From the NCBI GenBank assembly GCA_031376505.1, contig JANMDX010000018.1:24214-88213 (forward strand): a DNA stretch of 64,000 nt, written 5' to 3'. The DNA is from Acidobacteriota bacterium. Lineage in GTDB: Bacteria; Acidobacteriota; Vicinamibacteria; Vicinamibacterales; UBA2999. The translations under genes and the position numbers were made by a program. Positions within the stretch are counted from its first letter, which is position 1; every line of letters begins with the position of its first letter. The notes under the pieces were generated by a model. The model made no database searches, was not told the DNA's origin, and was given only the letters and a program-made list of their open reading frames with translations. Shown here piece after piece: positions 32,356 to 42,514 of the stretch.

Positions 32356-34195
32356 CCGCCGTCGCCACGACCGCCTTGCCGCTGCCGTGCTCGCCGCACT
32401 GCTGGCGACGGCGTGCGCCTCGACGAGTGCGCTCACCCACGCCCGCGCGGCCGAACAGCAGCAAGACTACGACCTGGCCGTTGCAGAGTACACGAAGGCG
32501 GCGCGCGCCAAGCCCAGCGACCGGAGTGTGCGCCTGGCGCTCGACCGCGCCAAGCTGCGGGCCTCGCAAGACCATTTTTCCCGCGCCCGCCGGCATGCCG
32601 CAACCGGTCGTGCCGAAGAAGCGCTCATCGAATATCAGCTCGCTGCGGAGTTGAACCCCGCCAGCGGCGACATTCAGAACGAGTTGCGCACGCTCCGCAC
32701 CCAGATGCGCACCCAGGTGGCCCTCGACCGGGGCGGCAAGACCACGCTCGAAGCCCTCATCAGAGACAGCCTGGCCGCGCCGCTCCCGGGCGCCGACCTG
32801 CCCGCCGATGTCACCCTGCCCGATTCCCTCGTCTTTCGCGAGGCGGGCGCGCGCGACGTGTTTACTGCGATCGGCAAGTTCGCGAACCTCAGCGTGATCT
32901 TCGACCCCGCGTTCCGCGACACCCCGGTCAGCATCGACTTGCGTAAGGCGCCGCTGGCCGACGCGCTCAACGCGGTCGGCACGGTAACGCGCACGTTCTG
33001 GCGCGTGGCCGCGCCGCGCCCGATCGCGATCGTGCCCGACACGGCCCCCAAGCCCCGCGAGTACGAGGAAGAGATCGTGCGCACCTTCTTCCTCAGTAAC
33101 GCTGATCTGAAAGAGACCGTCGACGTGCTGCGCATCGTGGTCGATGCGCGCCGGCTCGCGCCCGTCGCTGCCAGCAACGCCATTACCATCAAGGACACGC
33201 CCGAGCGCGTCGCCGCGGCGGGCCGCATCATTCAGGCCATCGACAAGGCGCGCCCCGAGGTGGTCATCGACGTGGAGCTGCTGGAAGTGGACCGCACGCG
33301 TCTGCGCGACTATGGCATGCAGATCGCCTCGCCGACGGCGGCACCCACCGGCCTGGACGGCCAGGTGGCCGTGGGCAGCGACAGCTTGACGCTACGCGAC
33401 CTGCGCAACCTCACGACCTCGGACGTGCTCCTCACGAACCTGCCGGGCTTGTTCTACCGGCTGCTCAAAAGCGACACCAACACCCGCACGCTGGCCAATC
33501 CGCAGCTGCGCACGTCGGAAGGCATCTCGGCGCAGGCGCGTTTCGGCGAGCGCGTGCCGGTACCGGTCACCACCTTTGCGCCCATCGCCGCTGGCGGCGT
33601 CCAGACCCAGCCCATCACCTCGTTCAACTACGAGAACATCGGCGTCAACATCGACATCACGCCGCGCACGCATCACGATGACGACGTCACCCTGGCGGTG
33701 AAGATCGAGGTCAGCAGCATCTCTGGCAGCGGCTTCGGCGGTCTACCTACGTTCGGCAACCGGTCCATTACGACCGTGATCCGCCTGCGCGACGGCGAGA
33801 CCAACATGCTGGCCGGTCTCATCCGCGACGAAGAGCGCAAGGTGCTCTCGGGCATCCCGGGACTGAGCGACATCCCGATCCTTGGGCGGCTGTTCGCCTT
33901 CAATCGTATCGAGACACAAGAAACCGACATCATCCTGACGCTCACGCCGCACATCGTGCGCGTGCTCGACCTCACCGAGGCCGACGTCCGGGCGTTCCGC
34001 GTGGGACGCGATACGGGGACGTCGGTCATCGACGCGCCGATTCCGCCCGCCAATCGGCCACCCGGCGGGGACGCGCCTGCCCCTGCGGCCGCGCCGCCGG
34101 CGGCCCCAGCCGGGCCGTCGTTGCGCCCGTTGCCGCCAGCGCCCGGCCCCGCTTCGCCCCTGAAGCCGCCCCCGCCGCGTCCACCTGGCCGCTAG
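32345..34195 (+). CDS. Secretin-family outer-membrane protein with lipobox-like signal, N-terminal TPR-like region and Pro-rich tail
   Basis: N-terminus MAASRRRHDRLAAAVLAALLATAC. A TPR-like helical segment, secretin N-domains and a canonical secretin C-domain (LANPQLRT.., GIPGLSDIPILGRLF, DIILTLTPHIV). The ~55-aa C-terminal tail is Pro/Ala-rich. Confidence 0.85.
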   Translation: MAASRRRHDRLAAAVLAALLATACASTSALTHARAAEQQQDYDLAVAEYTKAARAKPSDRSVRLALDRAKLRASQDHFSRARRHAATGRAEEALIEYQLAAELNPASGDIQNELRTLRTQMRTQVALDRGGKTTLEALIRDSLAAPLPGADLPADVTLPDSLVFREAGARDVFTAIGKFANLSVIFDPAFRDTPVSIDLRKAPLADALNAVGTVTRTFWRVAAPRPIAIVPDTAPKPREYEEEIVRTFFLSNADLKETVDVLRIVVDARRLAPVAASNAITIKDTPERVAAAGRIIQAIDKARPEVVIDVELLEVDRTRLRDYGMQIASPTAAPTGLDGQVAVGSDSLTLRDLRNLTTSDVLLTNLPGLFYRLLKSDTNTRTLANPQLRTSEGISAQARFGERVPVPVTTFAPIAAGGVQTQPITSFNYENIGVNIDITPRTHHDDDVTLAVKIEVSSISGSGFGGLPTFGNRSITTVIRLRDGETNMLAGLIRDEERKVLSGIPGLSDIPILGRLFAFNRIETQETDIILTLTPHIVRVLDLTEADVRAFRVGRDTGTSVIDAPIPPANRPPGGDAPAPAAAPPAAPAGPSLRPLPPAPGPASPLKPPPPRPPGR

Positions 34196-35445
34196 ACCTT
34201 CGACACCCGTGCGCCGAGCGACTGCAGGCGCTCCACGAGCTTGCTGTAGCCCCGCTCTACCGTTTCGAGCGGCTCGACCCGGCTCTGGCCCTTGGCGGCC
34301 AGCGCCGCCGCGATAAGCGCCATGCCCGAGCGAATGTCGCGGCTATCGAGCGTCTTGCCCTTCAGCTTCGCCGGACCGGTCACGATGATGCGGTGCGGAT
34401 CGCACAGGAACAAGTCGGCGCCCATGCCGCTCATCTGCTCGAGTGCGAAGAGACGCAACTCATAGAGCCAGTCGTGCACCAGGGTGGCGCCCTCCGCCTG
34501 CGTCGCTAACACCGTCACCAGGCTGACGAGATCGCTCGGGAAGCCCGGCCACAGACCCGTGGTAAGGCGCCCGGCTCCGACCAGCGTCGAGGGCTCCACG
34601 GTGAGCACGTCGCCGTCCTGGCGGCACCGCACCGACAACTTGCGAAGCGTGGCGATCACCACCTCCATGTCGAGGGCACGGGCGCCACGGATTTCCACCT
34701 CGCCGCCCGTAATCGCGCCCACCACTGCCCAACTCCCCGCTTCGATGTAGTCGCCATACAGCGCCTTGCTCGCACCGCCAAGGCGGATGCCGCCCTCCAC
34801 GCGGATCGTGTGTGAACCAGCGCCTGTAATTCCCACGCCCATGAGCGCCAGGAATTCGCACAACTCAACGACATGCGGTTCGCAGGCGGCATGGCGGATC
34901 TCGGAGATCCCGGGCGCCGCGGCCGCAGCCAGAAGCGCCGTCTCGGTGCCGGTCACGGATGCCTCGTCAAGGTAGATCGACGCGGGCTTCAATCCCCTCG
35001 GCACTTCGAGCCGATGTCCGTCGCCCTCCACGTGCTCGGCGCCCATCGCCGTGAGGGCCTCCAGATGGGTGCGAATCGTGCGTCGGGCCGGAAAGTCGCC
35101 GCCCGGCGGCGCGACAAATGCCCGGCCGGTCCGCGCCAGCAGGGGGCCCAGCAGCAACACCGAGCCGCGCAATCGTCCGACCAGTGCCCGGTCTGGTTCG
35201 TGCGAACGCACCTCTTTGCACCGGATGTGCAGCGTGGGGCTCCCGATCCCCTCGACCTCCGCACCGAGATCGAGCAGCAAGCGCGCCATGACGTCCACGT
35301 CGACAATCCGCGGCACGTTCATGAGCACACACGGCTCGGACGTGAGCAGCGCGGCGGCCATGAGCGGCAAGGCCGCGTTCTTGTTGCCCTCGACGTCCAC
35401 CGCGCCTGACAAGCGGTGGCCGCCCTCGATGATCAACGTCGACAT
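34192..35445 (-). CDS. murA: UDP-N-acetylglucosamine 1-carboxyvinyltransferase
   Basis: MSTLIIEGGHRLSGAVDVEGNKNAALPLMAAALLT. The start is trimmed to ATG 35445. Confidence 0.95.
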   Translation of the reverse strand: MSTLIIEGGHRLSGAVDVEGNKNAALPLMAAALLTSEPCVLMNVPRIVDVDVMARLLLDLGAEVEGIGSPTLHIRCKEVRSHEPDRALVGRLRGSVLLLGPLLARTGRAFVAPPGGDFPARRTIRTHLEALTAMGAEHVEGDGHRLEVPRGLKPASIYLDEASVTGTETALLAAAAAPGISEIRHAACEPHVVELCEFLALMGVGITGAGSHTIRVEGGIRLGGASKALYGDYIEAGSWAVVGAITGGEVEIRGARALDMEVVIATLRKLSVRCRQDGDVLTVEPSTLVGAGRLTTGLWPGFPSDLVSLVTVLATQAEGATLVHDWLYELRLFALEQMSGMGADLFLCDPHRIIVTGPAKLKGKTLDSRDIRSGMALIAAALAAKGQSRVEPLETVERGYSKLVERLQSLGARVSKV

Positions 35446-35461
35446 GATGGATTCCCGTGGG

Positions 35462-36400
35462 TTACCAGGCGCCGAGCCTGACGATCTCCTCGCGCAGGGC
35501 GACGCCGAAGGCGTCGTGCACCCGCGCGCGGCACAACTCGATGAGAGCGGCGATGTCGGCCGCGGTGGCCGTGCCATCGTTCACGATGAAGTTGCCGTGC
35601 GTCAGCGAGACGCGCGCGCCGCCCACGACATGGCCCTTCAGGCCGGCCCGGTCGACGAGCGCCCCGGCCGACGCCGCGATGCCCTCGGGCACGCGGTCAC
35701 GCCCGGGCTGTGGATTCTGGAAGATGCAGCCGGCACTCGGCGAGGCGAGGGGTTGGGTCCGCTTGCGAAATGCCAGCGACGCCCTCGCCACAGCACGCAA
35801 GGCCTCCGGGTCGCAGCCGGGCCTGAGTCGAAAGGCAGCCCAGATCGCGACCTCGCCGGAACGCTGCAGCCGGCTCGTGTCGTAGGCAAACTCCATCCGG
35901 TCGTGGTCCACCTGTCGCAGGCCGCCGCCGCGGCCGGCGATGCGGACGCTCTCGACCAGGTCGCCGATGTTCGCCTTCTGCCAATGAGCATTGCCGTAGA
36001 TGGCGCCGCCGACGGTGCCAGGCGTGCCGGCCCAGGCCTCGGTCCCACCGAGGCCACGCGCGATGGACCACCGCACGAGGCCGTTCACCGTGACCGCCGC
36101 ATCAATCCGGACGAGGTCGCGGCCCACCATCTGCAACGTGCCGCCACGCGGCCGAATGACGAGCCCGCGCACGCCCGCGTCCGACACCAGGACGTTCGAA
36201 CCGCCACCGAGCATCGTGACCGGAACGCCGTGCGCGTGCGCCACCTTCAGCAGACGCACGACCACGTCGCCGTCCCGCGGTTCAACCAGCCACTCGGCCA
36301 GACCACCGACCTTGAACGTGGTGAGCGGCGCAAGCGGCGCGTCACCGTACACGGCCAGGTCCGGAAAGCCGTCGCGCAGCACGTCGCCAAATGCGCTCAT
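35462..36400 (-). CDS. murB: UDP-N-acetylenolpyruvoylglucosamine reductase
   Basis: FAD-binding PCMH domain (TFKVGGLAEW, GGGSNVL) and a MurB C-terminal domain. Confidence 0.93.
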   Translation of the reverse strand: MSAFGDVLRDGFPDLAVYGDAPLAPLTTFKVGGLAEWLVEPRDGDVVVRLLKVAHAHGVPVTMLGGGSNVLVSDAGVRGLVIRPRGGTLQMVGRDLVRIDAAVTVNGLVRWSIARGLGGTEAWAGTPGTVGGAIYGNAHWQKANIGDLVESVRIAGRGGGLRQVDHDRMEFAYDTSRLQRSGEVAIWAAFRLRPGCDPEALRAVARASLAFRKRTQPLASPSAGCIFQNPQPGRDRVPEGIAASAGALVDRAGLKGHVVGGARVSLTHGNFIVNDGTATAADIAALIELCRARVHDAFGVALREEIVRLGAW

Positions 36401-37356
36401 GCGCCGGCCCCATCAGGGATGGCGCGCAGCAGTTCACGCTCGCGAGCAATGAGGGCGTGTCTGGCTTCGGCTCGTGTACAGGAGACGAAGCGCAGCGCGT
36501 CGCCAGGGCCCAGCTGGCCGGCCAGCGGAAGGTCGGCGGTGATGACGGTGGCAATCTTCGGATAGCCTCCGGCCGTCTGCCGATCCGCCATCAACAGGAT
36601 CGGCGCTCCTCCGGCCGGTACCTGGATCGCGCCGAATGGGACGGGCTCTGAGAGCAGTTCCTCCGACTGCAAGGTCGTGAGCACTGGCCCTTCGAGCCGG
36701 AATCCCATCCGATTGGACTGCGGCGACACGCGGAAGACTTCGCGCAGCAGAGCCTCAATCGACGGCCGTGAGAAACGCGAGTCCTGTGGGCCAAGCATCA
36801 CGCGCAGCGCTGGCGTTGCCGCAGCGTCGAACCGCTGGACCCTGACGGCGGCCCGGGGCGTGATGGTCCACGAGACACGTCCCACCGGGAGCGAGTCGCC
36901 ACTGATCAGCGCGCGGCCGGCCACGCCGCCCATGCCACTCAGGAGGTGCGTGGAACGGCTGCCGAGTACCATCGGCGTCTCGATCCCCCCGGCCACGGCG
37001 AGATAGGCACGGCTTTCCGCACGGCGCTGGCCGAAGCGCAACGTGGCCCCTGGCTCGAGTGCAAACGCGGTCTGGTGCGCGACCGGCCGGCCATCAACGC
37101 TCAGCACGAATTCGGCGCCAGTCACGGCGGCCACCAGGGCCTGCTCCGCCCGCAGTTCAGGGCCGATCAGCGTCACCTCGAGTGTGGCGGCGGTGGCGGC
37201 GTTACCCACGAGGGCGTTGGCCAGACGATGGGCGAACGTGTCCATGGCACCACAAACCGGCACGCCGCGCGACTGACTGCCCCAGCGCCCGAGGTCCTGC
37301 ACCGTGGTGAGCAACCCGGGCCGGACCACGGTCAGGCCCGTCTGACTTACGTCCAT
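36397..37356 (-). CDS. pxpC: 5-oxoprolinase subunit C / KipA (allophanate hydrolase subunit 2) family protein
   Basis: GLLTTVQDLGRWG, SNRMGFRLEG and ADRQTAGGYPKIA motifs. Confidence 0.85.
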   Translation of the reverse strand: MDVSQTGLTVVRPGLLTTVQDLGRWGSQSRGVPVCGAMDTFAHRLANALVGNAATAATLEVTLIGPELRAEQALVAAVTGAEFVLSVDGRPVAHQTAFALEPGATLRFGQRRAESRAYLAVAGGIETPMVLGSRSTHLLSGMGGVAGRALISGDSLPVGRVSWTITPRAAVRVQRFDAAATPALRVMLGPQDSRFSRPSIEALLREVFRVSPQSNRMGFRLEGPVLTTLQSEELLSEPVPFGAIQVPAGGAPILLMADRQTAGGYPKIATVITADLPLAGQLGPGDALRFVSCTRAEARHALIARERELLRAIPDGAGA

Positions 37357-38048
37357 GGGCCACCGGCGCGGAGGTCCCAGTCGTCCGGAGCCATGGCGAC
37401 GAAACGCACGCAGTCACCGGCCCGGAGCAGCGCGGGCTCCTCGCGGTCCACGTCGAACATCCGCCACGGCGTGCGGCCGATGATCTGCCAGCCGCCGGGG
37501 CTGTCGCAGGGATAGACGCCGGTCTGCTGGCCGGCGATTCCCACGCTGCCGGCTGGCACCAGTGGGCGCGGCGCCGCGCGGCGGGACATCGCGATGGTCG
37601 TCTCCACCGAGCCGAGATACGCGAATCCTGGCAGGAAGCCGAGCATGTAGACGCGATAGGTCTGCCGCGCGTGACGCGCCACGACCTCGTGACTCGAGCA
37701 TCCGGCCCACGCCGCGACAGCATCGAGGTCTGGACCATGGACGCCGCCGTAGCAGACTGGGACTTCGACCACCCGGGCCGGCGTGTCCGGGCCGGCCGCA
37801 CGGTCCCAGGCGTGAGTCACGACCTGCTCGAGGGCCGTGCCGTCGAAGTACAGCGGATCCACGTGCACTCCCACCGACGCGTAGCCGGGAACCACGTCAC
37901 GTACTCCGGCGACCCTGGCCTCGACGATCGCTTGCGCCAACGTCACGACCCGCGCGTTGACCTCGGGCGACATCTGCGCCTCGAACTCCACCAGCACGAG
38001 CGCGTCGCCGGAATGGTGCAGTCGCGGGCGCGCGAGTGTGGCCGTCAC
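37347..38048 (-). CDS. pxpB: 5-oxoprolinase subunit B / KipI (allophanate hydrolase subunit 1) family protein
   Basis: VPGYASVGVHVDP, MLGFLPGFAYLG and GIAGQQTGVYPCDSPGGWQIIGRTP. GTG start in a GTGA overlap with the mpl stop. Confidence 0.85.
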   Translation of the reverse strand: MTATLARPRLHHSGDALVLVEFEAQMSPEVNARVVTLAQAIVEARVAGVRDVVPGYASVGVHVDPLYFDGTALEQVVTHAWDRAAGPDTPARVVEVPVCYGGVHGPDLDAVAAWAGCSSHEVVARHARQTYRVYMLGFLPGFAYLGSVETTIAMSRRAAPRPLVPAGSVGIAGQQTGVYPCDSPGGWQIIGRTPWRMFDVDREEPALLRAGDCVRFVAMAPDDWDLRAGGPWT

Positions 38049-39445
38049 GCCAAGGCCTCGAGCAGCTGCGCATGGATGCCGTCGAAGCCGCCGTTGGACA
38101 TGATGACGATGTCGTCGCCCGCAGCCGCCTCGGCGGCCAGGTGCGCCACGATGGCCGCGACGTTGGGCAGTTGCCGCGCCGACACGCCCGCCGCGCGCAC
38201 ATCGTCGATGAGCTGCGCCCCCGACAGTCGCAGTGCCTCAGGCAGCGTGCTGCGATACACCGGAGCGATCACCACTTCGTCGGCCGCCGCAAACGCCTTC
38301 GCGAAGGCGTCCTGGAACACGCGCCGGCACGACGAAGCGGAGCGTGGCTCGAACACGGTCCATAGCCGGTGGCCCGGCCTGGATGCGCGCATCGCGGCGA
38401 TGGTCTCCGCCACGGCGGTGGGGTGGTGCGCGAAGTCGTCATACACCGTGATGCCGCGCCGTTCTCCAACCACCTCGAGCCGGCGCTTCACGCCGGCAAA
38501 GGTGGCCAGTCCCGCTCGGATGGCCGCCATGCTCAGCCCGCACTCGTGGCCGATCGCGACGGCCGCTAGCGCGTTGCGGACGTTGTGCGCGCCTCGTAGC
38601 GGCACCTCGAGTTCGCCGGCGAACCCGTCAGGGCCACCTACAAAGAAGCGGGTGCTGTCGCCCCGAGAGATGAGCGCGGTCGCCTGCCAGGTCGCGCCGT
38701 CGGTCGTGCCGAAGGTCTGCACCCGGCACCTGGCGTGCGGCGCGAGCGCCGCGGCCTCCGGACTATCGGCACCGAGCAGCACCAGTCCCCGACCGGGAAC
38801 GAGCATCACCAACCTGGTAAACGCCAGTCGGACGGCCGCCAGGTCAGGATAGATATCGGCGTGGTCGAACTCCACGTTGTTCACGACGGCGATGTCGGGC
38901 AGGTATTTCAAGAACTTCGCTGTCTTGTCAAAGTACGCGCTGTCGTATTCGTCACCCTCGATCACAAACGCCCGGCCGCCCCCGACGCGATAGCTGGCGC
39001 CGCCGGCGCCGAAGTTCTTGGCGATGCCGCCGACGAGCATCGATGGGTCCGCGCCACCGCTCGTGAGCACCCATGCCGCCAGCGACGTCGTCGTCGTCTT
39101 CCCGTGGGTGCCCGCCACCACGATCGCGTCGGCGTTCCACAGGAACGTGTCGCGGATGGTCTCCGGCAAGGACGCATACCGGATCGACCGATCGAGCACG
39201 GCCTCGAGCTCAGCGTTCCCGCGGGAGATCGCGTTCCCCACGACGACGAGATCGAGGTCGTCGGCAATGTGCGCGGCGGCGTAGCCCTCGAGGATCGGAA
39301 TGCCCTCGCCCGCCAGGAAATCGCTCATCGGTGGGTACACGTGCTCGTCAGAGCCCTGCACCTGGTCGCCGCGCGATTTCAGCAACGCCGCCAGCGTGGC
39401 CATGGCCGTGCCGCAGATGCCGATGAGATGGACGCGCCGCCCCAT
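38045..39445 (-). CDS. mpl: UDP-N-acetylmuramate:L-alanyl-gamma-D-glutamyl-meso-diaminopimelate ligase
   Basis: HLIGICGTAMATLAALLKSRG.V.GSD...YPPMSDFL is the Mpl-type N-terminus, followed by a Mur ligase central P-loop (VAGTHGKTTTTS). The start is trimmed to ATG 39445. Confidence 0.9.
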   Translation of the reverse strand: MGRRVHLIGICGTAMATLAALLKSRGDQVQGSDEHVYPPMSDFLAGEGIPILEGYAAAHIADDLDLVVVGNAISRGNAELEAVLDRSIRYASLPETIRDTFLWNADAIVVAGTHGKTTTTSLAAWVLTSGGADPSMLVGGIAKNFGAGGASYRVGGGRAFVIEGDEYDSAYFDKTAKFLKYLPDIAVVNNVEFDHADIYPDLAAVRLAFTRLVMLVPGRGLVLLGADSPEAAALAPHARCRVQTFGTTDGATWQATALISRGDSTRFFVGGPDGFAGELEVPLRGAHNVRNALAAVAIGHECGLSMAAIRAGLATFAGVKRRLEVVGERRGITVYDDFAHHPTAVAETIAAMRASRPGHRLWTVFEPRSASSCRRVFQDAFAKAFAAADEVVIAPVYRSTLPEALRLSGAQLIDDVRAAGVSARQLPNVAAIVAHLAAEAAAGDDIVIMSNGGFDGIHAQLLEALA

Positions 39446-40398
39446 CAGTAGACCGCAGGTTCTTCGATCGACAGGGCCGGCGCGGCGCCCGCGAGCAGAC
39501 GCGCCGACACCCCGAACGGCAGCGTCAGTGCGGCGCCGACCGTGTGACCCGACGGAAAGCCGAATACGACTGGTCCGGGAAAGTGGGCGAACAGGTCGCG
39601 CAGAACGGCCCGCACCGTGGGCTCGCCGCCACCCTCGTCGCATCCAGGGAAGGTGCCCAGTACGACTCCCGTCACATGCCGGAACATCCCGGCTTGGTGA
39701 AGCTGCGTCACCAGACGATCGATGCGGTACGGCCGCTCACCGACGTCCTCGAGAAACAGCACACTCGGCTCGCTCGGGAGGCAGGCGAAGGGCGTGCCCA
39801 GCAGCGACGCCAATTGAGTGAGCGTGCCGCCGACGAGCACGCCGGCGGCCTCGCCGGGCCGAAACACCTCGAGTCCGGCCGGCGCCAGCGTGCCCATGGC
39901 CACGGGCTGCGTTACGGCGGCGAGCAGCGACGCCCGGTCGTAGCCCGCGTGTCCCTGCGCGAGGCGTCCCTCGACCATAGGGCCGTGAAACGCCACCACG
40001 CCGTGCGCGACCTGCCACGCCAGCAGCGCCGTCAGATCGCTGTAGCCCACAAACACCTTCGGGTCGGCAACCAGCCATCGTGGGTCGAGCATCGGCAGGA
40101 GCTGCTGACTGCCATACCCGCCTCGAACTGCCACGATGCCGCGAATGGCGGGGTCGCCCCACGCGTCGGCCAGCGCCGAGGCGCGCACTGCCGGCAGACC
40201 CGCGACGTAGCCATGGCGGGCCTTCACGCGATCGTCGTAGACCGGCTCGAAACCAAGCGCGCGTAACTCGTCGGCACCCCGTTCGAGGTCCTCAGCCTTC
40301 ACGGGACTGGCTGGGGCGACCAGGGCGATGCGGTCGCCGGGCTGCAGCCGTCGGGGCCGCCTGCGCCCCGACTCGGTGCGCGCGTCTGCTGTGATCAC
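39445..40398 (-). CDS. ldcA: LD-carboxypeptidase (S66, muramoyltetrapeptide carboxypeptidase)
   Basis: GDRIALVAPASP, GYSDLTALL (nucleophile Ser) and GFPSGH. GTG start in a GTGA overlap with the nagZ stop. The longer track ORF would overlap nagZ. Confidence 0.85.
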   Translation of the reverse strand: MITADARTESGRRRPRRLQPGDRIALVAPASPVKAEDLERGADELRALGFEPVYDDRVKARHGYVAGLPAVRASALADAWGDPAIRGIVAVRGGYGSQQLLPMLDPRWLVADPKVFVGYSDLTALLAWQVAHGVVAFHGPMVEGRLAQGHAGYDRASLLAAVTQPVAMGTLAPAGLEVFRPGEAAGVLVGGTLTQLASLLGTPFACLPSEPSVLFLEDVGERPYRIDRLVTQLHQAGMFRHVTGVVLGTFPGCDEGGGEPTVRAVLRDLFAHFPGPVVFGFPSGHTVGAALTLPFGVSARLLAGAAPALSIEEPAVY

Positions 40399-41489
40399 GC
40401 GAACGCCGCCATTTCGGCCGCCACGATCTGGTGTTCCTCGCAGCCCACGACGCCGCGCCAGGCCCGCAAGCGTTGGCGAATGGGCACGGTCGCGCCGCCT
40501 CCGAGGAAGCGCGTCTTCGTGCGGGTCATCCGCGCCAACGCATCGTCGACGCGCGCCAGCGAGAGTGCGCCCGACTCCACTGCCTTCACAAGCGCTTCGA
40601 GAGTAGCGACCTGCACTTCGACGTTGCCACTGCACACGAGGACCGCGTCGCACCCGGCGGCGATCGCGGCCACGGCCGCCTCCGGCGGCGGCCACGACTT
40701 GGCGATGGCTCCCATGTCGAGGTCATCGCTCACCACGACGCCGCCGAAGCCCAGCTCGTCGCGCAACAGGCGCAACACCGCGGGTGACAGCGTGGCCGGC
40801 CGAGCGTCGTCAATCGACGGCACGACTACGTGGGCCGTCATGACGAAGGCCACGCCCGCCTCGATGGCCGCCCGGAACGGTCGAAACTCCACCGCGCGCA
40901 AGCGGTCCGGAGCGTGGTCGACATACGCAAGATCACGGTGTGAGTCGACGGTAGTGTCGCCATGGCCAGGGAAGTGCTTTCCACACGCCGCCACGCCGGC
41001 ATTCTGAAGGGCGGTGATGATCGCCACGCCGAGCGCCGACGCCGTCTCGACGTCTGCCGAGAGCGACCGATCGCCGATGACCGGATTACTGGGATTGGTG
41101 TTCAGGTCGAGCACCGGTGCAAAGTCGAGCGTCACGCCCACGGCCCGTAACTCGCGGGCCAGGGCCACGGCAAAGCGCGTCGCGAGTTCGGCCGACGGCG
41201 CGCGGCCGAGCGCGGCCATCGGCGGCCACACCGTGAAAGGCTCCCGCAGGCGCGCGACCCGGCCACCCTCCTGGTCCACGCCCACCCACGCGGTGGATCC
41301 TACGCCGAGGCACTCACTGGCAAATGCGAGTTCGAGCACCTGCTCTGGGCTCTCCACGTTGCGCGCAAACAGGATGACGCCACCGAGGTCGAACTCGCGG
41401 GCGAGCGCACGAAGTTCCACGGTGACCTCGCGGCCGGGAAGACTCCCGATGAGCAATTGACCGATACGGCGACGGACTGGGACGGGCAT
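40395..41489 (-). CDS. nagZ: Beta-N-acetylhexosaminidase (GH3)
   Basis: GH3 NagZ motifs (GGVILF.RN, VDQEGGRV, KHFPGHGDT..DSH). Confidence 0.9.
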   Translation of the reverse strand: MPVPVRRRIGQLLIGSLPGREVTVELRALAREFDLGGVILFARNVESPEQVLELAFASECLGVGSTAWVGVDQEGGRVARLREPFTVWPPMAALGRAPSAELATRFAVALARELRAVGVTLDFAPVLDLNTNPSNPVIGDRSLSADVETASALGVAIITALQNAGVAACGKHFPGHGDTTVDSHRDLAYVDHAPDRLRAVEFRPFRAAIEAGVAFVMTAHVVVPSIDDARPATLSPAVLRLLRDELGFGGVVVSDDLDMGAIAKSWPPPEAAVAAIAAGCDAVLVCSGNVEVQVATLEALVKAVESGALSLARVDDALARMTRTKTRFLGGGATVPIRQRLRAWRGVVGCEEHQIVAAEMAAFA

Positions 41490-41503
41490 GGGTGTGGGAG
41501 CAT

Positions 41504-41509
41504 TATAAT
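41504..41509 (+). promoter_or_regulatory. Perfect TATAAT hexamer in the 26-bp nagZ/GHMP-kinase divergent spacer
   Basis: TATAAT is read at 41504-41509. Six nt separate it from the GTG at 41516. No convincing -35 element is present. Confidence 0.3.
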
Positions 41510-41515
41510 TCCGCC

Positions 41516-42514
41516 GTGACCGTTACCGCGTCGGCTCCGACCCGCGTCGATCTCGCCGGCGGGACCATCGACATCTGGCCGCTCTATCTGTTTCACCCGG
41601 GCGCCCAGACACTCAACGCCGCCGTCAGCTTGCGCGCGTACGTCCGCCTCGCGCCGCGCACCGACGGACGGCTCCTGCTGGCGTCTGACGACTTGGGCAT
41701 CTCGACCGGCCCGCTCGAATACGACGACCTCCCCGCTGACACGACCTTGCCCCTCTTGGCGAAGTTGGCGCACGCCTTCGGCGCACGCGGCGTCACGATC
41801 ACGACCTCCAGCCAGGCGCCCGCCGGCGCCGGCATCGCCGGCTCTTCGGCACTGAATATCGCCGTCTCGGCCGCGCTCGCCCGGTGGACCGGCCGTGCGG
41901 TCGGCGACGACGACCTGCTCGAGGTCGCCAAGAACGTCGAGGCCCAGGTCATCGGCGTGCCCACGGGACTGCAGGACTACCGCCCTGCCCTGCACGGCGG
42001 CGTGGCCGCGATCGAGCTCGGCGTGCACGGCGCCCGGCGTGTGGCTCTGTCGGTCGACCCGGCGCAACTCTCAGCACGACTCGCCCTGTGCTACACCGGC
42101 GCGCCCCGCCAGTCCGGTATCAACAACTGGGAGATCACCAAGCGCCGGATCGACGGTGACGCCCAGGTGATTCGCTCCTTCACCGAGATCGTGGCGGCCA
42201 CACGGGCCATGCGTGCGGCGCTTGAACGCGGTGAGTGGCGCGAGGCCGGCGCGTCTCTGGCCGCCGAGTGGCAGACCCGGAAGCAACTGGCGCCTGGCGT
42301 CACGACGCCGGAGATCGACGCCTTGCTGGCGACGGCGGTCGCCGCCGGAGCCTGGGCCGGCAAGGTTTGCGGCGCTGGTGGCGGCGGCTGCGTATTCGCC
42401 CTTGCGCCGCCCGAGGCCATTGATGCGGTGCGACAGGCCTGGGCCGCGAGGGGCGCCACGGTGCTCGATGCCGCGGTCGAGTCTCGCGGTGTCATCGTGA
42501 GCGAGGAGCCCTGA
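41516..42514 (+). CDS. GHMP-family sugar kinase (HddA / fucokinase / sugar-1-kinase-like)
   Basis: N-terminal APTRVDLAGGTIDIWP and the GHMP motif II PAGAGIAGSSALNIAVSAAL. The GTG 41516 start gives the family-typical N-terminus. Confidence 0.75.
   Translation: MTVTASAPTRVDLAGGTIDIWPLYLFHPGAQTLNAAVSLRAYVRLAPRTDGRLLLASDDLGISTGPLEYDDLPADTTLPLLAKLAHAFGARGVTITTSSQAPAGAGIAGSSALNIAVSAALARWTGRAVGDDDLLEVAKNVEAQVIGVPTGLQDYRPALHGGVAAIELGVHGARRVALSVDPAQLSARLALCYTGAPRQSGINNWEITKRRIDGDAQVIRSFTEIVAATRAMRAALERGEWREAGASLAAEWQTRKQLAPGVTTPEIDALLATAVAAGAWAGKVCGAGGGGCVFALAPPEAIDAVRQAWAARGATVLDAAVESRGVIVSEEP

Follow-up and report, generated by a model that had tools for sequence, protein, structure and literature searches.

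The genes pxpB and pxpC located between mpl and murB seem to code for standard subunits B and C of the tripartite prokaryotic ATP-dependent 5-oxoprolinase, relocated a single time into an essential operon for the cell wall, and we assign a probability of about 0.75 to this reading. Their partner PxpA would be the product of a single unlinked pxpA on another contig. As summarised in PMC13274462, phosphorylation of 5-oxo-L-proline with ATP is presumably the task of PxpB and PxpC, and PxpA opens the ring to give L-glutamate.

The window, i.e., the whole stretch of 64,000 nucleotides that was analysed, originates from a soil-dwelling member of the Acidobacteriota, order Vicinamibacterales. Seven ORFs, nagZ, ldcA, mpl, pxpB, pxpC, murB, and murA, follow one another in that order on the minus strand between positions 34192 and 41489 (Table 1). 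Family-model matches confirm the seven identities and the order proposed in the first-pass annotation, and all six junctions are exactly as it had claimed once the start codon of each gene is taken as the candidate nearest to where the family match begins. A TATAAT motif is situated 12 nt upstream of the nagZ ATG (41489), within a 26-nt divergent spacer, and a simple consensus scan, from which acidobacterial signals may differ, revealed no promoter-like or terminator-like site inside the block on the minus strand. We infer that the seven genes are co-transcribed as one operon.

Table 1. Genes and gene junctions of the nagZ-murA block, with positions in the window.
Feature	Position	Strand	Description
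nagZ	40395..41489	-	GH3 beta-N-acetylglucosaminidase; first gene of the block; PF00933 287 bits; NF003740 245 vs. cut-off 207
ldcA	39445..40398	-	LD-carboxypeptidase, Peptidase_S66; PF02016 and PF17676 (N- and C-terminal domains)
mpl	38045..39445	-	UDP-MurNAc:L-Ala-gamma-D-Glu-meso-DAP ligase; TIGR01081 405.9 vs. cut-off 388.7
pxpB	37347..38048	-	5-oxoprolinase subunit B, CT_C_D, KipI-like; TIGR00370 214.8 vs. cut-off 145.55
pxpC	36397..37356	-	5-oxoprolinase subunit C, CT_A_B, KipA-like; PF02626 313 bits; TIGR00724 284.5 vs. cut-off 230.2
murB	35462..36400	-	UDP-N-acetylenolpyruvoylglucosamine reductase; NF010480 261 vs. cut-off 259
murA	34192..35445	-	UDP-GlcNAc 1-carboxyvinyltransferase; TIGR01072 400.5 vs. 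cut-off 392.7
nagZ/ldcA junction	ldcA GTG at 40398	-	GTGA, 4-nt overlap
ldcA/mpl junction	mpl ATG at 39445	-	TGATG, 1-nt overlap
mpl/pxpB junction	pxpB GTG at 38048	-	GTGA, 4-nt overlap
pxpB/pxpC junction	pxpC ATG at 37356	-	10-nt overlap
pxpC/murB junction	murB ATG at 36400	-	ATGA, 4-nt overlap
murB/murA junction	murA ATG at 35445	-	16-nt gap

The assignment of mpl as distinct from murC is based on its score with the murC model TIGR01082, which stays under that model's own cut-off, whereas the score with TIGR01081 lies above. In each of the five relatives searched, a separate paralog of mpl with 34-37% identity is encoded elsewhere, which we take to be MurC. The LdcA homolog possesses both Peptidase_S66 domains and reaches a score of 130 with the equivalog model for E. 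coli LdcA (NF008424, cut-off 378). Both murB and murA are single-copy genes, with one PF02873 match for murB and no second match above cut-off for murA in the whole genome. Because no other murB or murA exists in the genome, the block would constitute an essential, probably constitutive transcription unit starting at the predicted nagZ promoter. In the core of this operon, NagZ and LdcA would trim imported muropeptides, MurA and MurB would provide UDP-MurNAc, and Mpl would join the recycled tripeptide to it.

As to the two genes in the middle, pxpB is the sole CT_C_D gene and pxpC the sole CT_A_B gene of the genome. PxpC passes the family-level model TIGR00724 and scores 258 with the NCBIfam PxpC equivalog NF045499, for which the cut-off is 500, a shortfall that we count against the ordinary-enzyme reading. 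Among solved structures, PxpB is nearest to PH0987 (175 bits) and to YbgJ from E. coli (5DUD, 168 bits), and it also matches 2ZP2 (158 bits) as well as 3MML and 9YX5 (119-120 bits). A PxpB tree built from 114 rows places the copies embedded in the cell-wall operon in one clade (SH-aLRT 98) with a stem of ordinary length (0.20), and this clade is nested among pxpA-linked PxpBs from several phyla. If those columns that are at least 90% conserved in pxpA-linked homologs are considered canonical, the embedded clade has kept 30 of 33 of them in PxpB and 47 of 48 in PxpC, and the column comparison with pxpA-linked homologs shows no radical clade-specific substitutions in either protein. Both the position in the tree and the retention of the canonical columns are in line with standard 5-oxoprolinase subunits.

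It is correct, as noted in the first-pass annotation, that pxpA is absent from the window. The genome's sole PF03746 match (348 bits) is found on a contig (C86) other than that of the operon, and its product passes the NCBIfam PxpA subfamily model NF003814 (373 vs. cut-off 226), a result in favour of the ordinary-enzyme reading. Among 151 genomes of the class, pxpB was detected in 131 and pxpA in 132; both are present in 130 genomes and neither in 18, and in the three discordant ones the gene in question, or the neighbouring mpl, is cut at a contig edge. This co-occurrence does not depend on linkage: of the 47 genomes of the order carrying both genes, 46 do not have pxpA beside pxpB, and in closed genomes of the order pxpA is situated hundreds of kilobases to megabases away from pxpBC. 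The genes are also lost jointly, in members of five of the sampled families of the order (G032/G108; G036; G154/G163; G157; G166), and in five of these seven genomes without pxpABC the cluster reads nagZ-ldcA-mpl-murB-murA, pxpBC being cleanly gone. From such near-perfect co-occurrence and co-loss of unlinked genes we infer that PxpBC still work with PxpA, and the three proteins would be expected to assemble physically and to be active as an enzyme. A conserved membership of pxpA in an arginine operon was considered and rejected, as the arrangement argC..argJ-argF-pxpA is seen within the genus only. That pxpA has no conserved operon partner counts against the ordinary-enzyme reading, as the co-ordination of the three subunits is left unaccounted for.

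In sister orders, ldcA-mpl occurs without pxpBC and murB-murA, and pxpA adjoins pxpBC. Beyond the Vicinamibacterales, where the analysis covered the sample of the class and the top 80 loci from a genome-collection scan, pxpA lies next to pxpBC in almost all loci examined. The usual pxpABC cluster was probably split in the ancestor of the Vicinamibacterales, with pxpBC landing between mpl and murB; either a single step or a series of steps could have brought in pxpB-pxpC-murB-murA. Thereafter, the essential operon would have locked pxpBC in place, and a metabolite-repair enzyme would have gained housekeeping expression.

The same gene order recurs in about 60 loci of relatives, so that the arrangement is not due to chance. 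The seven-gene order holds across the Vicinamibacterales, and mpl-pxpB-pxpC-murB persists together with its overlaps down to about 50% protein identity in at least 17 families. Over the 40 loci with all seven genes, median junction distances range from -4 to -1 nt, except for murB/murA (17.5 nt), and those of mpl/pxpB and pxpC/murB are both -4 nt. Since the gene order extends well beyond this genome, only part of what the first-pass annotation had itself named as refuting its proposal (a co-regulated pxpA elsewhere, PxpBC of standard type, and an order restricted to this genome) is encountered. The persistence of order and of overlapping junctions is compatible with selection for expression together with the cell-wall genes, and we count it against our best explanation, which treats it as incidental.

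A sub-case of the 5-oxoprolinase reading, differing from it only on whether the position has been selected, is that the placement has no functional meaning and reflects a neutral ancestral rearrangement, kept only by a slowly rearranging neighbourhood and by the essential murB-murA downstream; we regard this as a serious but tentative possibility. The unrelated flanking genes, i.e., those for a secretin, a GHMP kinase, ORFs of 95 and 318 amino acids, and an HTH_25 protein, are equally syntenic across the order, and conserved order alone is therefore no argument for shared function. In addition, some lineages have a broken or edited cluster, and nothing is seen there that would replace it. However, the overlaps are maintained in the 40 loci, and immediately beyond the block insertions occur frequently; in many loci, for instance, about 1.8 kb separate the GHMP kinase gene from the next gene. 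The best match of this upstream GHMP kinase is HddA-like, with 107 bits against a cut-off of 600, which yields no assignment to a specific sugar kinase.

Alternatively, PxpBC might form a true 5-oxoprolinase with the unlinked PxpA and their position might nevertheless have been selected, since substrate or product would be tied to cell-wall metabolism and co-expression with mpl, murB, and murA would be functional. The enzyme could, for example, clear a pyroglutamyl or 5-oxoproline by-product that increases as stem peptides are turned over or Mur ligases act, or feed glutamate back into the supply of D-Glu. Besides the order-wide conservation of the overlaps, such selection would be in line with genome G039 (locus L059), which lacks ldcA and mpl from the interval separating nagZ and pxpB and in which pxpBC still stay with murB-murA, and with one sub-clade in which the order is unchanged although pxpBC are fused and the place of murB is taken by another type of MurB. 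We nevertheless consider it unlikely, given that the unrelated neighbours are just as syntenic, that the five-gene cluster remains intact in five members of the order devoid of pxpABC, and that sister orders have ldcA-mpl without pxpBC. Moreover, the D-Glu of the stem peptide is N-acylated, which would leave no obvious route to free 5-oxoproline, and in the literature searched 5-oxoprolinase is not linked to peptidoglycan-recycling genes. The proposal that PxpBC are tied to muropeptide turnover rather than to general 5-oxoprolinase activity finds no support in view of the presence of pxpA, the co-occurrence and co-loss, the canonical columns, and the equally syntenic flanks. It is similarly doubtful that PxpBC are kept in the operon for an as yet undescribed physiological reason, be it that 5-oxoproline/glutamate homeostasis is coupled to stem-peptide turnover or that PxpBC, besides working with PxpA, bind an enzyme for cell-wall precursors and adjust its activity, in the way that the mycobacterial homologs do with acyl-CoA carboxylase. 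Least probable is that PxpBC without PxpA act as a protein-binding regulator of an envelope-precursor enzyme, modelled on KipI/KipA (the other role suggested in the first-pass annotation) or on MSMEG_0435-0436: although a complex of PxpBC homologs attaches to BCCP domains and reduces the activity of propionyl-CoA carboxylase (PMC13012033), and pxpBC lie inside an envelope operon away from pxpA, the strictness with which the pair and the unlinked pxpA occur and are lost together, the retained canonical columns, the position in the tree, and the fact that PxpB resembles YbgJ and PH0987 more closely than its mycobacterial counterpart all speak against it.

If the ordinary 5-oxoprolinase reading holds, the genes for a multi-subunit enzyme have been split and two subunits have been locked into an essential cell-wall operon throughout the history of the order, and the co-loss of the unlinked parts is unusually clear genomic evidence that they continue to work jointly. 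The case also calls for caution, since deducing function from conserved gene order may mislead where synteny in a lineage is generally high. The core nagZ-ldcA-mpl-murB-murA makes a tidy genomic statement that recycled tripeptide and new UDP-MurNAc meet at Mpl, and we know of no study on peptidoglycan recycling in this phylum. Should 5-oxoproline and the cell wall really be linked in function, this would be new biology, but none of the present tests supports such a link.

NagZ, LdcA, and Mpl, together with AmpG, AmpD, and AnmK, are responsible for the cytoplasmic recycling of murein peptides in the Gram-negative bacteria E. coli and Caulobacter (PMC13046382). Similarly, homologs of NagZ, the LdcA family, and Mpl are encoded in the operon described here, and one AmpD-like amidase (Amidase_2 match) is encoded elsewhere in the genome. 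In contrast to the Gram-negative system, the three recycling genes are joined directly, in one block, with the sole murB and murA that the genome contains, and no match to AnmK was found in the genome, which is rated 100% complete. The lack of an AnmK match suggests that recycling of the sugar moiety probably does not follow the E. coli route and that the UDP-MurNAc for Mpl would need to come from MurA and MurB.

PxpABC is known as YbgL/YbgJ/YbgK in E. coli, YcsF/KipI/KipA in B. subtilis, and PxpABC in C. glutamicum (Niehaus et al., 2017, as cited in PMC13274462). As in these systems, A, B, and C homologs are single-copy here and pass family models (for PxpC, the family-level TIGR00724), PxpB and PxpC keep the canonical columns, and YbgJ and PH0987 are among the nearest solved relatives of PxpB. 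The difference consists in the genes being unclustered, with pxpBC in a peptidoglycan operon and pxpA unlinked.

KipI and KipA from B. subtilis inhibit the kinase KinA. In M. smegmatis, MSMEG_0435-0436 binds the biotin carrier of the long-chain acyl-CoA carboxylase and lowers its activity. The authors of PMC13012033 suggest that the PxpBC homolog complex takes part in the regulation of cell-wall lipid precursors. PxpBC belong to the same two protein families as these regulators (MSMEG_0435-0436, Rv0263c/Rv0264c, and KipI/KipA), as is also evident from the matches to 3MML, 9YX5, and 2ZP2. However, the similarity of PxpB to the mycobacterial BCCP-binding homolog (119 bits) is below that to the canonical subunits (168-175 bits), and the close coupling with pxpA in phyletic distribution points to a role as enzyme.

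Seven minus-strand ORFs lie head-to-tail in the block that runs from nagZ to murA, and their identities were assigned with Pfam and NCBIfam profile models (see table). With the start codon of each gene taken as the candidate nearest to the beginning of the family match, the junctions from nagZ to murA consist of GTGA, TGATG, GTGA, a 10-nt overlap, ATGA, and a 16-nt gap, which reproduces exactly those listed by the first-pass annotation for a seven-gene operon. A simple consensus scan of the minus strand within the block returned no promoter-like or terminator-like site, although signals of acidobacteria may deviate from the consensus. The 3' end of murA overlaps a convergent secretin gene by 4 nt. 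At the other end, a short spacer separates nagZ from a divergent gene for a GHMP-family sugar kinase of no specific type, which might conceivably take part in the salvage of amino sugars. This spacer contains a TATAAT, 12 nt downstream of which nagZ starts, and holds the palindromic ATTATAAT, a putative -10 box that could serve both genes and would leave each of them with a near-zero 5' leader.

Features of the block, its flank, and loci elsewhere (positions without a locus or contig label are those of the window)
Feature	Location	Strand	Basis or remark
Block of seven ORFs	34192-41489	minus	
NagZ		minus	GH3; NF003740 above cut-off
LdcA-family LD-carboxypeptidase		minus	both Peptidase_S66 domains; score under cut-off of the E. 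coli equivalog model
Mpl		minus	TIGR01081 406 (cut-off 389); MurC model under its own cut-off
PxpB		minus	TIGR00370 215 (cut-off 146)
PxpC		minus	TIGR00724 285 (cut-off 230); PxpC equivalog model 258 (cut-off 500)
MurB		minus	NF010480 261 (cut-off 259)
MurA		minus	TIGR01072 400.5 (cut-off 393)
nagZ/GHMP-kinase spacer	41490-41515		26 nt, between nagZ ATG (41489) and family-typical GTG of the kinase gene (41516)
GHMP-family sugar kinase	41516-42514	plus	best match HddA-like, 107 bits (cut-off 600)
Run ending in pxpA, own genome	L004 7844-13833 (contig C86)		argC, two ORFs without assignment, argJ, ornithine carbamoyltransferase gene, pxpA
Locus with mpl and murB split, relative G025	L073 8180-14539		
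pxpA match in pieces, relative G085	C2:617530-618245		three consecutive pieces, different frames

As the genome has no murA or murB besides those of the block, the block is essential. Mpl uses as substrates UDP-MurNAc, the product of MurA and MurB, and the tripeptide that is left after the action of NagZ, an AmpD-type amidase, and LdcA. A single AmpD-like gene lies outside the block, and no AnmK was found in this assembly, so that recycled peptide may have to be joined to newly made UDP-MurNAc, which would provide a rationale for the linkage of mpl to murB-murA. No chemical step of this scheme evidently calls for PxpBC, and the D-Glu of the stem peptide, being N-acylated, would not be expected to cyclise to free 5-oxoproline. 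The literature searched did not link 5-oxoprolinase to nagZ, ldcA, or mpl.

The absence of pxpA from the window holds true locally. A genome-wide search, as proposed in the first-pass annotation, identifies exactly one LamB/YcsF gene in the assembly (6.48 Mb, 435 contigs, rated 100% complete); it is situated on a separate contig, and its product scores above the cut-off of the NCBIfam PxpA subfamily model. pxpB and pxpC are also single-copy genome-wide, the pair in the block being the only one. The location of pxpA behind several arg genes is confined to the genus, and in other families pxpA is often found near a DndB-like gene. In one member of the order (G085), in which pxpB is intact, the fragmented pxpA match stems from a pseudogene with frameshifts or else from errors in a long-read assembly.

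Among 151 genomes of the class Vicinamibacteria, each at least 85% complete, pxpB is encoded in 131 and pxpA in 132, with both genes present in 130 and neither in 18; in the three discordant genomes a contig edge falls at the gene in question or at the adjacent mpl. Inside the order Vicinamibacterales pxpA and pxpBC are unlinked, and the cases found there are the informative ones. Both are absent in members of five families (G032 and G108; G036; G154 and G163; G157; G166). Five of these genomes (G032, G036, G154, G163, and G166) have a nagZ-ldcA-mpl-murB-murA cluster with only a short spacer at the pxpBC site, in G108 mpl is followed by a PPK2 gene, and in G157 (L195) and its congener G025 mpl and murB are split by about 6 kb, the insert of G025 comprising two genes for TMEM260-like (GT-C) glycosyltransferases and an oppositely oriented LolA gene. 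Clusters that are intact without pxpBC, together with the joint loss of an unlinked pxpA, indicate that the operon works without PxpBC and that PxpBC are dropped when PxpA is dropped. This is the pattern of subunits of one enzyme rather than of a PxpA-independent function in the cell wall and, with a single pxpA in the genome, it speaks against the earlier proposal that PxpBC work without PxpA.

The order mpl-pxpB-pxpC-murB proved to be conserved across Vicinamibacterales when relatives were compared. With few exceptions, the genomes sampled from the genus, family, and order (17 family codes) have all seven genes following one another from nagZ to murA, while protein identity drops to about 50%. 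Of the 80 best PxpB loci of the genome collection, all those from Vicinamibacteria-like MAGs show this order too. Median junction distances in the 40 loci with all seven genes lie between -4 and -1 nt, with 17.5 nt for murB/murA. As gene order and junction distances are common to the relatives, the compact layout is ancestral and not a peculiarity of this genome. In two genus members seemingly devoid of pxpB, mpl is truncated by the contig end. Unrelated flanking genes also keep their positions across the order, i.e., those for the convergent secretin, the divergent GHMP kinase, and an HTH_25 protein as well as two ORFs of 95 and 318 aa, and because they are equally syntenic, conserved order alone says little in favour of PxpBC sharing a function with the cell-wall genes.

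Some variants occur. In locus L059 (genome G039), pxpB-pxpC-murB-murA directly follow nagZ in a cluster without ldcA and mpl. In six loci from one sub-clade of the family (L054, L062, L063, L068, L087, and L145), pxpB and pxpC form a single open frame, and the MurB encoded at the same operon position is only about 30% identical to that of the window; a different type of MurB apparently occupies the murB position there. L078 and L082, from MAG records whose titles name Acidimicrobiia and Bifidobacteriaceae, contain the full Vicinamibacterales-type cluster, their PxpBs fall inside the clade of embedded copies, and their taxonomic labels are probably wrong.

Outside the order, pxpA adjoins pxpBC in almost all loci examined, including those from Bacillota, Chloroflexota, Bacteroidota, Pseudomonadota, Bathyarchaeia, and other Acidobacteriota (Holophagaceae and Pyrinomonadaceae). 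Within the class, the sister orders have pxpA and pxpB adjacent in all but one genus, and their ldcA-mpl, sometimes with nagZ ahead, has no murB, murA, or pxpBC behind it. In one sister-order genome the convergent secretin directly follows mpl, an adjacency which suggests that pxpB-pxpC-murB-murA gained their position between mpl and the secretin gene at the base of Vicinamibacterales.

A maximum-likelihood tree was built from 114 PxpB sequences; in it, all 43 copies embedded in the cell-wall operon form one clade (SH-aLRT 98) that is nested among pxpA-linked PxpBs and whose stem (0.20) is no longer than neighbouring stems. A separation from bona fide 5-oxoprolinases, for which the first-pass annotation had suggested such a phylogeny, is therefore not observed for PxpB. 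PxpBs from G030 and G025, two members of the order with a different arrangement, group with Chloroflexota copies, and this placement suggests replacement by transfer. Of the alignment columns with at least 90% conservation among pxpA-linked homologues, 30 of 33 (PxpB) and 47 of 48 (PxpC) are as conserved in the embedded clade, and residues specific for this clade are conservative changes only.

PxpABC is a widespread three-subunit prokaryotic 5-oxoprolinase, and loss of any one subunit leads to 5-oxoproline accumulation, as stated in a passage of PMC13274462 that cites Niehaus et al. (2017). In mycobacteria, PxpBC homologues were reported in 2026 to bind the biotin carrier of a long-chain acyl-CoA carboxylase and to damp its activity (PMC13012033), a precedent for PxpBC acting without PxpA as a protein-binding regulator; the coupling of pxpA with pxpBC in the class genomes argues against such a role here, and we consider it very improbable. 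From the first-pass interpretation, the operon stands as real, as does the lack of a nearby pxpA, but a special role in muropeptide metabolism finds no support in the joint loss with pxpA, the canonical columns, or the synteny of the flanks. We favour, with a probability of roughly three in four, that PxpBC are ordinary B and C subunits of a 5-oxoprolinase whose PxpA would be supplied from elsewhere in the genome, and that pxpBC were relocated into an essential cell-wall operon in what would have been a single event, being kept there ever since. Among deposited structures there is none with PxpA bound to PxpBC. Of the solved structures, those closest to the PxpB of the block are PH0987 and E. 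coli YbgJ, whose genes lie beside those of PxpA homologues, and the match to MSMEG_0436 from mycobacteria is weaker.
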